Positions 1-24,000 of a DNA stretch of 26,548 nt are shown here, in pieces. Made by a program: the position numbers. Source of the stretch: a virus (taxonomy: Duplodnaviria; Heunggongvirae; Uroviricota; Caudoviricetes); IMG/VR virus record IMGVR_UViG_2681813161_000008. One strand, 5' to 3'. How positions within the stretch are numbered: position 1 is the first letter of the stretch; every line of letters begins with the position of its first letter.

Positions 1-3000
1 TTACTGATAGTGTTTTATGTTCAGATAATGCCCGATGACCTTGTCATGCAGCTCCACCGATTTTGAGAACGACAGTGACTTCCGTCCCAGCCTTGCCAGA
101 TGTTGTCTCAGATTCAGATTATGTCGCTCAATGCGCTGAGTGTAACGCTTGCTGATAACGTGCAGCTTTCCCTTCAGGCGTGATTCATACAGCGGCCAGC
201 CATCCGTCATCCATACCACGACCTCAAAGGCCGACAGCAGGCTCAGAAGACGCTCCAGTGTGGCCAGAGTGCGTTCACCGAAGACGTGCGCCACAACCGT
301 CCTCCGTATCCTGTCATACGCGTAAAACAGCCAGCGCTGACGTGATTTAGCACCGACGTAGCCCCACTGTTCGTCCATTTCAGCGCAGACAATCACATCA
401 CTGCCCGGTTGTATGCGCGAGGTTACCGACTGCGGCCTGAGTTTTTTAAGTGACGTAAAACCGTGTTGAGGCCAACGCCCATAATGCGTGCACTGGCGCG
501 ACATCCGACGCCATTCATGGCCATATCAATGATTTTCTGGTGCGTACCGGGCTGAGAGGCGGTGTAAGTGAACTGTAGTTGCCATGTTTTACGGCAATGA
601 GAGCAGAGATAGCGCTGATGTCCGGCAGTGCTTTTACCGTTACGCACCACGCCTTCAGTAGCGGAGCAGGAAGGACATCTGATGGAAATGGAAGCCACGC
701 AAGCACCTTAAAATCACCATCATACACTAAATTAGTAAGTTGGCAGCATTACCCCATTGCTGGCATAAATTCAGTTTCGAATATTCAGTTAATTAAAGTT
801 CGTGTGCCATCTTGTCTTTTTCGGCACAAGCTGCACCGCAATATTTTCGTTTCTTTCTGGCAATCATGTTTCCATGCATATAAATAAGCTCGCCAGTAAA
901 AGCTTTTTCAGGTAAAAACTGTTTATTGCAGAGATGGTAATCACATTGTATTAAATCCGGGTCACCTTTTTGCTGGAGAATTTTTCTGATTCTCCACAGC
1001 CATTTTTTAATCCCGGTATGACTGATGGTCTGCCTGAGGTGTACTGGCAATAGCGGACACTACCATTTGTTCTTTTTTTAAGCAGCCATCTGATGATATT
1101 TTTCCCTGAAGGCTGCCGGGGAGATATTCCCCAGACGAGAGTGACGACGCTGACGATTGTAGAAAATCTCAATGTATTCCCGTATTACTGAGATGGCTTC
1201 ATCCCGGTTATTAAAACGATAGTGGCTCAGGCTCTCATTTTTCAGCGTTCCCCAGAAGCTTTCCATCGGAGCGTTGTCGTAACAGTGACCTTTACGCGAC
1301 ATTGATGTTTTCAGACCAGACTGCTCCTGTATGACCCGGTAATCGTATGCGCAGTACTGTGAACCTCGATCAGAGTGGTGGATTAGCCCGGCAGGTGGGC
1401 GCTGGCTCCTGAGCGCCATAAACAGGGCTTTACCTGTCAGCTCTTTTGTCATGCGCTCTCCCATGGCGTAGCCGACAATTTCGCACGTATAAACATCTTT
1501 GATGCCAGCGAGGTACAACCATCCCTCCTGTGTGGCAACATACGTCAGGTCCGCCACCCAGACCTGATTTGGTGCTGTAGGAGCGAACGTCTGGTTCAGC
1601 AGATTTGGCGCAACTGGCAGATTGTGGTTCGGGTTCGTAGTCGCTCTGAACTTGCGTTTCTGCTTACAGCGTAGCCTTAGCTCCTTACGAAGACGTGCCA
1701 GTCGGTCACGACCAACGATGATGCCATTCTCTGCCAGCTCCGTCTGGAGCCGCCGGGTTCCATATGTTTCGCGAGTGCGGATATGTGCCACCTTAATCTC
1801 CAGTTTTAGCCGCTCATCACTTTGTTTTCTGTCTGAGGGTTCATGCTGTACCCAGTTGTAATAACCGCTCCTGGATACACCAAATACCTGACACATCGCT
1901 TCAATGGGAAATTGTTGTCGCCATTGTTCGATTAACGCGTATTTTTCAGCGACTCCTGTGCAAAATACGCTGTTGCTTTTTTTAATATATCTCGCTCAAG
2001 GCGAGCTTCATTTAACGCCTTACGCAGTTGCAGAATTTCAGATTCCAGTTCAGCCACCGTGCGGGAACCAGGAGTACCGAGCCCTTTTCTGGCGGCGGTA
2101 ACCCATTGTCCTAAAGTGCCTTCAGGAAGGGATAATCGGGAAGCGCCTTCACTGATCGAAAGTTGATTTTCAAGAACCGTTCTGACAGCTTCGGCTTTGA
2201 ACTCTTTAGAGTAACGTTGGTTTTTTCTGCTCATTATTAGCTCCTTCTGATGCCATTCTATTTCAGGAAGGAGTGTCCGTTAAACTCAGGCTACCTCAAT
2301 CTTCTCTTATTTTGAAATACAGATTCGTCAGATAAGTCAGAAGCCCCAGAAGCAGACTTCCCAGCACACCAATCGCAGCCCACTGTGATGGACTGACCTG
2401 ATCCAACCACTGCAAAAACCAGTAGCCGGCACTGCCGGCGGAGGTGCCGTAGGCAATGCCCGTTGAAATTTTGTCCATGGATTTCATAGCCTCACCTCCG
2501 CAAATAACGGATGGCGTAGTTTTACACTGAGAAATGAAAGGGATTTGAAAAGAAAAAAACGCAAAAGCGGGCGAAACGATATATACAGTAAGGAAAGCAC
2601 TCTATCCAACAAACCACCCACAGTTAATCGGAATAAAAGCAGAGTGCTTATGAATGATCGCACGCCCGAAGGTTAGTATTTCTGCACAGCAATTTTGCAA
2701 AAAAAGGCGATCATTCATAACTTAAACGTCTTTCAGTCACTCCGGGATTTCCCATCATCGCAGACTGAAAGACTCTGACTGGAGCGGGCAGCGGGAATCG
2801 AACCCGCATCATCAGCTTGGAAGGCTGAGGTAATAGCCATTATACGATGCCCGCATATGGTGCCGACTACCGGAATCGAACTGGTGACCTACTGATTACA
2901 AGTCAGTTGCTCTGCCTGCTGAGCTAAGTCGGCGCTGGCCCACCACCGAGGACTCGAACCTCGCACCGTCAACTTAGAAGGTTGATGCTCTATCCGGATG

Positions 3001-21000: not shown

Positions 21001-24000
21001 CGCCGGGTTACTGGTTTTACCGCAATGATGAATTTGTCTTTGACTACAGACTCAAAGCGGAAGATGAGCGTGATGCCCTTCTGGCTCAGGTCAGTGCCCG
21101 GACAGGGGAATGGGAAGAAGACCTGCTGCTGGGGCTAATCAGCGACGAAGACCGGGAAAAACTGAAAGCGTACCGCATTTACGCGAAATCGCTGCAGGCG
21201 ATGGATTTCAGTGTCATCACTGATAAAACCTCATACAACGCCATTGAATGGCCCGCCTCTCCGGAAATTTCTTCCTGATTTAATTTATCGCGAGAAAAAC
21301 TATGTCTGTAGTGATATCAGGTGCGCTGACTGATGGCGCAGGTATCCCCATGTCCGGATACCATATTATTCTGAAATCCCGGGTAAACACCCCGGAAGTG
21401 GTGATGCACACTGTTGCTGATGTGATGACAGGAAACGATGGTGAATACTGTTTCCATGCGCGGACTGGAAAATATGGTGTGTATCTGAAACCGGGCTGGC
21501 ACAACGAGTACAACGTTGGCGACATTGCTGTATATGAGGACTCAATGAGGTGTACTGGCAATAGCGGACACTACCATTTGTTCTTTTTTTAAGCAGCCAT
21601 CTGATGATATTTTTCCCTGAAGGCTGCCGGGGAGATATTCCCCAGACGAGAGTGACGACGCTGACGATTGTAGAAAATCTCAATGTATTCCCGTATTACT
21701 GAGATGGCTTCATCCCGGTTATTAAAACGATAGTGGCTCAGGCTCTCATTTTTCAGCGTTCCCCAGAAGCTTTCCATCGGAGCGTTGTCGTAACAGTGAC
21801 CTTTACGCGACATTGATGTTTTCAGACCAGACTGCTCCTGTATGACCCGGTAATCGTATGCGCAGTACTGTGAACCTCGATCAGAGTGGTGGATTAGCCC
21901 GGCAGGTGGGCGCTGGCTCCTGAGCGCCATAAACAGGGCTTTACCTGTCAGCTCTTTTGTCATGCGCTCTCCCATGGCGTAGCCGACAATTTCGCACGTA
22001 TAAACATCTTTGATGCCAGCGAGGTACAACCATCCCTCCTGTGTGGCAACATACGTCAGGTCCGCCACCCAGACCTGATTTGGTGCTGTAGGAGCGAACG
22101 TCTGGTTCAGCAGATTTGGCGCAACTGGCAGATTGTGGTTCGGGTTCGTAGTCGCTCTGAACTTGCGTTTCTGCTTACAGCGTAGCCTTAGCTCCTTACG
22201 AAGACGTGCCAGTCGGTCACGACCAACGATGATGCCATTCTCTGCCAGCTCCGTCTGGAGCCGCCGGGTTCCATATGTTTCGCGAGTGCGGATATGTGCC
22301 ACCTTAATCTCCAGTTTTAGCCGCTCATCACTTTGTTTTCTGTCTGAGGGTTCATGCTGTACCCAGTTGTAATAACCGCTCCTGGATACACCAAATACCT
22401 GACACATCGCTTCAATGGGAAATTGTTGTCGCCATTGTTCGATTAACGCGTATTTTTCAGCGACTCCTGTGCAAAATACGCTGTTGCTTTTTTAATATAT
22501 CTCGCTCAAGGCGAGCTTCATTTAACGCCTTACGCAGTTGCAGAATTTCAGATTCCAGTTCAGCCACCGTGCGGGAACCAGGAGTACCGAGCCCTTTTCT
22601 GGCGGCGGTAACCCATTGTCCTAAAGTGCCTTCAGGAAGGGATAATCGGGAAGCGCCTTCACTGATCGAAAGTTGATTTTCAAGAACCGTTCTGACAGCT
22701 TCGGCTTTGAACTCTTTAGAGTAACGTTGGTTTTTTCTGCTCATTATTAGCTCCTTCTGATGCCATTCTATTTCAGGAAGGAGTGTCCGTTAAACTCAGG
22801 CTACCTCACAAAGCCCGGCACGCTGAATGACTTTCTGATTGCTCCTGATGAGGGCGACCTGAAACCGGATGTCGTCAAACGCTTTGAGGAAATGGTGGTG
22901 CAGGCGCAGCAGAGCGCCGGGGCCGCAGCCGGAAACGCACAGCAGACGGCGCAGGATGTGGCGGCAGCCGCAACGGCCCGTGATGATGCACAACGTTTTG
23001 CGGAGAATGCCAGACAGGATGCAACCGTCACAGCTGAGGACAGAAAGGCCACTGCGGAAGATGTGACAAGCACAGGAGCAAATGCAGCCGCAGCCGGACA
23101 GAGCGCACAGGATGCCGCAGGTTATGCCCGCGCAGCAGAACAGGCCAAAAATGACATTGATGCTGCGCTGACCGGCACTCTGAAAATGGCTAACCATCTG
23201 TCAGAAATCGCAGCAGCAGGCGAAAAGGCACAACAGAAGTCCCGGGATAATCTGGGGCTGAAAAGTGCGGCCACGATGGAAGCACAGAGCGACATTTACG
23301 ACCGGACAAAAGGCCGTCTGGCGATACCCGGCGCATTCGGCTTTGGGTGTGCTTTTCTGCCTGAAGATGTTATCCGTTTTGACACTAAGAGTGATTTCCT
23401 GGCCTGGGTAAGGAATGCGCTGCCAGGTGAATATTCCGTTGCTGGCCCCTACGACATCATCATACCCGACACACGGTTTGAAGGGGTGCTCAGCATCCGG
23501 TGGACTGATGCACGCCCTGAGACAACAGAACCGCGGTACAGAGCCAAATCCCTTACTTTTTACGGCATTAACGGCCCCATTTATCACACCCGCTACTGCT
23601 ACTGGCCCATATCCAGACTGACTGGCTGGGTGAAAATAAATATAACCACAGAAGATATTATTTACAGAATCGTGGCGAGCTCTGTCCGCAACAGATGGGG
23701 AGACCCTGACATTGGCGGGCTGATTATTGCTGCGTACCAGGGAGAAGCTGACGGTGATAAAGTCATCAGACTTGTCAGGGGGCAGTCATACAGAGGCTCA
23801 CGACTGGGACCGGTGGGGATTTCAGTGCCCAGTACTCCCACCGGAACGTATATAGCATCCCCACAATTTTTCATTACGGGATGTTCAGAGCATTCATTAC
23901 CGGGGTCATATTGCGCCCTGTCCGGGGGGCCGGATGCACATGTCTCTGGCGCAATGCCCGGGCTTTTTATTCGCACATCGTGAGGAATGCACCGTGGAAA

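Follow-up and report, generated by a model that had tools for sequence, protein, structure and literature searches.

The insertion sequence (IS) IS600, an element of the IS3 family, is present in four copies in the IMG/VR virus record IMGVR_UViG_2681813161_000008, a 26,548-nucleotide (nt) stretch of Caudoviricetes DNA from Shigella (hereafter, the window), and two of these copies lack a single A in the run at which the transposase is produced by programmed ribosomal frameshifting. The missing base in copies 2 and 4 is a real, heritable 1-bp deletion that places orfB outside the frame reached by the canonical shift. The shortened form is probably a defective heritable allele that has spread by recombination among IS600 copies, with no programmed switch involved. 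Throughout the text, A7 and A6 denote a run of seven or six A on the IS600 coding strand at element position 316-322.

A one-base difference between otherwise identical IS600 copies

The IS600 copies in the window were located by repeat finding and end-motif searches and were compared by multiple alignment and direct string comparison (Table 1). Copy 2 is exactly identical to copy 4, copy 1 is exactly identical to copy 3 after the latter is rejoined across an IS629-like insertion, and a single A in the run is all that separates the two pairs. The A6 copies are mutant alleles of the same element, identical to the A7 copies at 1263 of 1264 positions. The elements begin with TGAGGTAGCC and end with ACACCTCA, with terminal inverted repeats (TG...CA) present. 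Copies 2 and 4 are flanked by 3-bp target duplications, which read tag on the plus strand (cta in IS orientation) for copy 2 and caa (ttg in IS orientation) for copy 4, and 3-bp duplications also surround several related IS600 copies in other genomes.

Table 1. Coordinates of the IS600 copies, their reading frames and associated features in the window.
Feature	Position	Strand	Remarks
IS600 copy 1	1035-2298	-	1264 bp, canonical A7 form
Copy 1 orfA	1932-2234	-	100 aa
Copy 1 orfB	1078-1896	-	272 aa, -1 frame
Copy 1 frameshift heptamer	1977-1983	-	T7 on plus strand, A_AAA_AAA on coding strand
IS600 copy 2	6836-8098	-	1263 bp, A6 form, simple insertion
Copy 2 altered orfA	7747-8034	-	95 aa
Copy 2 orfB	6879-7697	-	+1 frame
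Copy 2 six-nt run	7778-7783	-	T6 on plus strand; with next base, A_AAA_AAG in orfA frame
IS600 copy 3	9378-11954	+	A7 form, split by the IS629-like element at element position ~681
Copy 3 orfA	9442-9744	+	100 aa
Copy 3 frameshift heptamer	9693-9699	+	A_AAA_AAA
Predicted stimulatory hairpin (copy 3)	9702-9742	+	9-bp core GCGUAUUUU/AAAAUACGC, starts 6 nt past heptamer
IS600 copy 4	21546-22808	-	1263 bp, A6 form, simple insertion
Copy 4 altered orfA	22457-22744	-	95 aa
Copy 4 orfB	21589-22407	-	+1 frame
Copy 4 six-nt run	22488-22493	-	T6 on plus strand
IS629-like element	~10057-11366		1310 bp, in orfB of copy 3, ends TGAACCGCCCCGGG...CCCGGGGCGGTTCA

Source annotations name the encoded proteins IS600 ORF1 and ORF2. 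Precomputed Pfam assignments for identical proteins in related loci place PF01527 on both the 95- and the 100-amino-acid (aa) products and PF13276, PF00665 and PF13683 on the 272-aa product, so that the IS3-family pairing of an OrfA with a helix-turn-helix domain and an OrfB with a DDE (rve) integrase-type domain is present. The family layout of two open reading frames (ORFs) with orfB in the -1 frame is found in copies 1 and 3 and is lost from copies 2 and 4 because of the 1-bp deletion. A first-pass annotation of the window had already reported seven-nt runs in copies 1 and 3 and six-nt runs in copies 2 and 4, OrfA proteins of 100 and 95 aa with a changed tail in the shorter one, an altered orfB register in the six-nt copies, and the two target duplications of simple insertions, and alignment of all four copies and translation of the frames agree with each of these. 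Three of its four run coordinates are correct as well, whereas the interval given for copy 4 (22498-22503) lies 10 nt off and reads TATCTC.

The run lies exactly at the IS3-family programmed frameshift site, as the first-pass annotation had proposed and as was already known from the literature. Read in the orfA frame, the A7 form has the codons TTA AAA AAA GCA, and orfB takes over in the -1 frame with KKSNSVFCTG.... A slippery heptamer of the type X_XXZ_ZZN is present in the orfA frame of both forms, as A_AAA_AAA in the A7 copies and as A_AAA_AAG in the A6 copies. The spacing of the predicted hairpin falls within the range of 4-10 nt required after the heptamer, and the 91-nt fold that includes it (9685-9775) has a minimum free energy of -20.3 kcal/mol (z = -2.56 versus shuffles). 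IS600 (IS3 group) has been catalogued as cluster A_AAA_AAA_1, with frameshifting at codon 86, a shifted OrfAB of 385 aa and an unshifted OrfA of 100 aa, and hairpin stimulation of its -1 shift has been called proven on the basis of unpublished data (Sharma et al., 2014; PMC4066793). Copies 1 and 3 match this entry. IS600 makes its OrfAB transposase by a -1 ribosomal frameshift on A_AAA_AAA with a downstream hairpin, a mechanism that is already catalogued.

Coding consequences of the six-nucleotide form

The orfA codons of the A6 form are TTA AAA AAG CAA..., and unshifted translation produces the 95-aa OrfA, which has a new 9-residue tail and ends in ...LKKQQRILHRSR. The heptamer becomes the classic A_AAA_AAG, and the hairpin is now 5 nt away. 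A -1 slip at this heptamer leads into GCA ACA GCG... and the normal tail, and its product is identical to the 100-aa OrfA. As orfB lies in the +1 frame, OrfAB can be made only through a -2 shift, which would give an identical protein, or through a +1 slip, which would give OrfAB minus one Lys. The canonical -1 route to OrfAB is therefore closed in the A6 form, because a -1 slip only remakes OrfA. Judging from the reading frames, the A6 copies would be transposase-defective and non-autonomous elements with intact ends that still express OrfA-type proteins. Rescue of these copies by transcriptional slippage is unlikely, because a six-A run in the related element IS1447 gave no frameshift and no fused product, while seven A sufficed (PMC6211511).

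Public annotations model these copies as frameshifted genes. An A6 IS600 copy inserted in hsdR of E. coli O145:H28 RM12581 (NZ_CP007136.1, positions 1269-2424; locus L110) is not treated as a pseudogene in RefSeq but is named [quoted passage not shown] and modelled as a two-piece join spanning 1156 nt. At two further loci (L053 and L068), the gene calls likewise cover 1156 nt for 385 aa and so imply a -2 join.

Reproducibility of the deletion

In the public collection, 122 contigs carry the 95-aa OrfA in exactly this form, among them several Shigella boydii Sb227 entries (ABB65069, ABB65136, ABB65311, and ABB65896), and with the Sb227 genome, A6 copies entered GenBank as a 95-aa "IS600 ORF1". 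Four Sb227 loci and six others were fetched, and the run was A6 in 10/10. The Sb227 copy beside the hsd genes and its counterpart in AMJZ01000081 are both A6 and share the private single-nucleotide polymorphism (SNP) 1217C>A. Furthermore, the records CP026731 (S. boydii ATCC 8700), CP182558, and UAUO01 concur on run state and private SNPs at three sites. The arrangement of the window differs from that of Sb227, and the nearest match is JWSL02000004, which is colinear with the window over 26 kb, differs from it in only two homopolymer indels (12113 and 13354), and carries A6 at the same two copies.

A second A7 run inside IS600, at element position 1214-1220, was used as an internal control for homopolymer error and is the strongest of the controls. 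This control run is A7 in all four window copies. Across the four insertion sites shared with related genomes, an unbiased set reached through non-IS neighbouring genes, the frameshift run was A6 in 14-15 of the ~43 genome-by-site cells, and the control run was A6 in 0/43. Generic homopolymer error is excluded as the source of the pattern, because the control run is invariant in the same copies. A6 matches in the plasmid collection were considered as independent support and rejected, as most such records are also A6 at the control run and look like noisy long-read assemblies. Most of these matches are in non-RefSeq records, and the counts of A6 at the frameshift and control runs were 7 versus 5 in CP102211 and 5 versus 5 in CP102217.

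The indel at 13354 splits a 673-aa SLT-domain tail protein into two ORFs (12316-13362 and 13347-14336). The indels at 12113 and 13354 are either assembly undercalls or strain-private pseudogenising deletions.

State of the run at shared insertion sites

Sites 1-3 were recovered from ten other genomes through a non-IS gene of 279 aa. Site 4 was recovered through a neighbouring gene of 461 aa, which was used in place of the junction protein (22760-23983) that had yielded only one genome. With the same flanks, site 2 is A7 in 8/11 strains and site 4 is A7 in 7/10 strains; site 2 is A6 also in CP026766, and site 4 is A6 also in CP026731. Copies 2 and 4 changed state after insertion, because most sister strains are A7 at the same insertions, and the base was evidently lost or converted in place. 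The first-pass annotation had left open whether the two copies transposed in the six-nt form or lost a base afterwards; the sister strains bear out the later change and speak against transposition as A6. Both states are represented at each of the four shared sites, among strains with few SNP differences in ~7 kb of flanking sequence, and the subset of copies in the A6 state varies from strain to strain. A strain tree built from the non-IS flanks has ~10 informative SNPs and one recombinant tract and gives rough groupings only, and counting of state changes on this tree was dropped because of the small number of informative SNPs.

The copies also recombine with one another. Copies 1 and 3 lack matching target duplications because their right-end flanks have been swapped, as seen in comparison with CP026811, CP160647, and other records; in related genomes, the left flank of copy 3, ...GGC, has GGC... 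as its partner. This arrangement indicates that the ~7 kb between copies 1 and 3, including copy 2 and the 279-aa phage gene, was inverted by recombination between the two IS600 copies. In CP026766, the site-1 left flank is joined to the site-4 flank. In ATCC 8700, the A6 next to the site-1 left flank is explicable, without any new mutation, as the A6 that other strains have at site 3, if the crossover of the inversion fell to the left of the run.

Neither of the SNPs 337T>C and 1012C>A is tied to one site; the insertion site that carries them varies from genome to genome. Of the two, 337T>C takes away the uppermost U-A base pair in the stem of the frameshift hairpin and was found in A7 copies at different insertion sites, for example at site 2 (locus L055), site 3 (L057), and site 4 (L063/L069 and L066). 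Its distribution hints at allele exchange between copies, and the change may possibly alter frameshift efficiency.

Frequency of the six-nucleotide form in other genomes

A wider survey of IS600 copies, which the first-pass annotation had suggested as a check, found the A6 form to be common only in S. boydii-type strains and rare elsewhere. In two other Shigella-type genomes, A6 occurred in 0/42 IS600 copies, and in metagenome contigs it occurred in 0/35, all copies being A7 in both sets. Among 5426 complete E. coli genomes, A6 was found at ~17 of ~5100 IS600 places (~0.3%). A7 was counted indirectly in these surveys, by a neutral IS600 probe and by pattern scans. An exact A8 was the best match in only three records of the complete E. 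coli genomes, and run lengths other than A6 and A7 were found in none of the fetched loci.

The first-pass annotation had further suggested that the run may act as a slippage-prone switch for transposase production. Variation in tract length at the same locus between close strains was seen at all four shared sites, as described above. Nevertheless, the indirect tests gave no sign of an intrinsically high slippage rate, neither in the control run nor in the frequencies of A6 and the still rarer A8. An intrinsically unstable run would make A6 and A8 common wherever IS600 occurs; both are rare, and a fast switch is therefore not supported. In these respects, the frameshift run behaves like an ordinary 7-nt run.

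Origin and spread of the A6 allele

The explanation that we favour, and consider probable, starts from A7 copies that make OrfAB by the -1 shift aided by the hairpin. A 1-bp deletion in the heptamer moves orfB to the +1 frame and thereby closes this route. The resulting A6 allele may have arisen rarely, possibly once, in a S. boydii-type lineage, and would owe its frequency there to homologous recombination or gene conversion between IS600 copies, which are many and nearly identical, with transposase from A7 copies possibly mobilising A6 copies in trans as a further route. A6 would then represent a decay or attenuation allele. In terms of mobilisation in trans, A6 copies with intact ends and target duplications occur at at least six sites, though sites 2 and 4 became A6 after insertion. 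The abundance of A6 in the clade and its mosaic distribution are better explained by allele exchange, because the copies visibly recombine.

Several points weigh against this explanation. The first ten A6 loci were found through a search with the A6 protein and are ascertainment-biased. The window has private undercalls relative to all relatives at 12113 (C5 versus C6) and 13354 (G4 versus G5), and its assembly is therefore not error-free. The site-4 copy of CP026731 (locus L065, 8202-9462) carries three 1-base deletions (197G, the frameshift run, and 1046G), and the local consensus quality of CP026731.1 over 8202-9462 is doubtful. The defective status of A6 is deduced from reading frames only, and the orfB frame may be reached by a -2 shift or if tRNA-Lys slips +1 on AAA_A. 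The Prokaryotic Genome Annotation Pipeline (PGAP) assigns A6 copies a 385-aa product under the label "programmed frameshift". Finally, the copies are too alike to separate gene conversion from recurrent de novo deletion, and the flank-based tree has ~10 SNPs.

The two undercalls, together with the noise that public plasmid assemblies such as CP102211 and CP102217 do carry, could suggest that the six-nt runs of copies 2 and 4 are homopolymer undercalls as well and that all four copies are truly A7. We regard this as very unlikely, since JWSL02000004 has neither of the other two undercalls and yet is A6 at both copies, site 2 and site 4 are each A6 in one further genome, the control run is A7 in all window copies and in 43/43 cells, and A6 in Sb227 is reproduced in another project at the same site and with the same SNP. 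The run could also be a contingency locus with a high rate of reversible replication slippage, in which copies toggle between A7 (on) and A6 (off). The mosaic difference in state among very close strains at all four shared sites and the specificity of the change to the frameshift run are consistent with such a switch, as is the avoidance of A7 runs in genes, for which transcriptional slippage or high indel rates have been considered as possible reasons (Sharma et al., 2014; PMC4066793). It is nonetheless unlikely, given the invariance of an equal-length A7 run in the same copies and the low frequency of A6, and lower still of A8, elsewhere; moreover, directly visible recombination among copies yields the mosaic without new mutation. 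Tracts of 6-7 nt are short, and typical phase-variable tracts are longer.

The remaining alternatives grant A6 copies a function. A6 may still be autonomous and represent an attenuated allele, in which a low level of OrfAB arises from UUA_AAA_AAG by a -2 shift (or +1 slip), the hairpin being 5 nt off. The identity of the OrfAB product after a -2 shift (one Lys fewer after a +1 slip), the presence of A6 copies at distinct sites with intact 3-bp duplications (loci L001, L005, L007, and L009), and the two-piece join by which PGAP models 385 aa would fit this possibility. However, experimental support for it was not found, sites 2 and 4 turned A6 after insertion, and A6 is hardly ever found in genomes with few IS600 copies, as expected of a form unable to spread by itself. 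The PGAP and RefSeq join over A6 is a convention of protein-guided annotation and no evidence of decoding. Autonomy of A6 is accordingly a very improbable reading. A broader version, in which A6 either leaks authentic OrfAB by a -2 or +1 event on the same sequence or acts as a regulator-only copy that damps IS600 in trans, is quite unlikely. As a possibility, a regulator-only copy would produce normal OrfA by the -1 shift in addition to the 95-aa variant and would be favoured in the IS-laden S. boydii lineage.

Comparison with known frameshifting and slippage systems

Copies 2 and 4 depart from catalogued IS600 in being short of one A in the heptamer, with orfB in the +1 frame. The frameshift cassettes of IS911, IS3, and IS150 combine A_AAA_AAG with a downstream structure and support an efficient -1 shift. 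The A6 form recreates A_AAA_AAG with a hairpin 5 nt downstream and, by analogy, should still shift efficiently to the -1 frame, but in A6 IS600 this frame encodes only the 14-residue normal OrfA tail followed by a stop, and no OrfB. IS1447-type elements of the IS3 family have orfB in the +1 frame and express it by transcriptional slippage on a run of nine A (PMC6211511). A6 IS600 resembles these elements in having orfB in the +1 frame and an A run at the junction, but slippage in IS1447 needs at least seven A, whereas A6 IS600 has six. With homopolymer contingency genes, A6/A7 IS600 shares a tract that varies in length among close relatives and determines the reading frame; unlike in those genes, the IS600 tract is short, its variant is rare outside one clade, and a matched control tract is stable.

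Literature searches yielded no paper on the A6 form of IS600. The new points are the coding logic of this form, in which the -1 shift remakes OrfA and OrfAB is lost, its clade-specific abundance, and its mosaic distribution set against an invariant control run.

Other elements in the window

The IS629-like insertion disables copy 3 and lies outside the A6/A7 polymorphism. The same insertion is present in JWSL02000004, and Sb227 carries the same IS629-like element elsewhere, once inside a different IS600 copy. A perfect inverted repeat of 754 nt is formed by positions 1-754 and 3371-4124, one arm being cut by the start of the window, and the 167-aa products with a DDE_Tnp_IS1 domain, as judged from the ORFs and related loci, indicate that the arms are IS1 copies. 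The region 15453-18985 contains an IS66-family element, with ORFs of 139 aa, 116 aa (TnpB_IS66), and 530 aa (transposase), and then a minus-strand IS3-family element; the IS66 unit is tandemly duplicated in CP026811.

Near the end of the window, an ipaH-type effector gene with LRR_TTSS and NEL E3-ligase domains (24737-26548, minus strand) runs off the window end and encodes 608 aa in relatives. This gene adjoins phage tail-fibre remnants that are interrupted by IS600 copy 4. A complete IS600 also makes up a 1380-bp contig of Streptomyces sp. UG1 (NZ_JBNGGG010000135.1; locus L025), which has a coverage of 1.3 and is almost certainly enterobacterial contamination.

Implications for IS600 in Shigella

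In S. boydii-type Shigella, approximately one third of the IS600 copies at the surveyed shared sites are probably without a known route to transposase, and copy number would overstate the number of active elements in models of IS activity because A6 copies probably lack transposase. The automatic annotation of A6 copies as "programmed frameshift" genes of 385 aa implies a hypothetical -2 shift, and the practical value of the finding lies mainly in interpretation and annotation. As a natural marker, the A6/A7 mosaic at identical sites can be used to follow recombination or gene conversion between IS copies. If A6 is an attenuated or regulatory allele, it would bear on how IS expansions are tamed, and if the A6 form is leaky or regulator-only, it would be a bacterial counterpart of the defective transposons that produce repressors.

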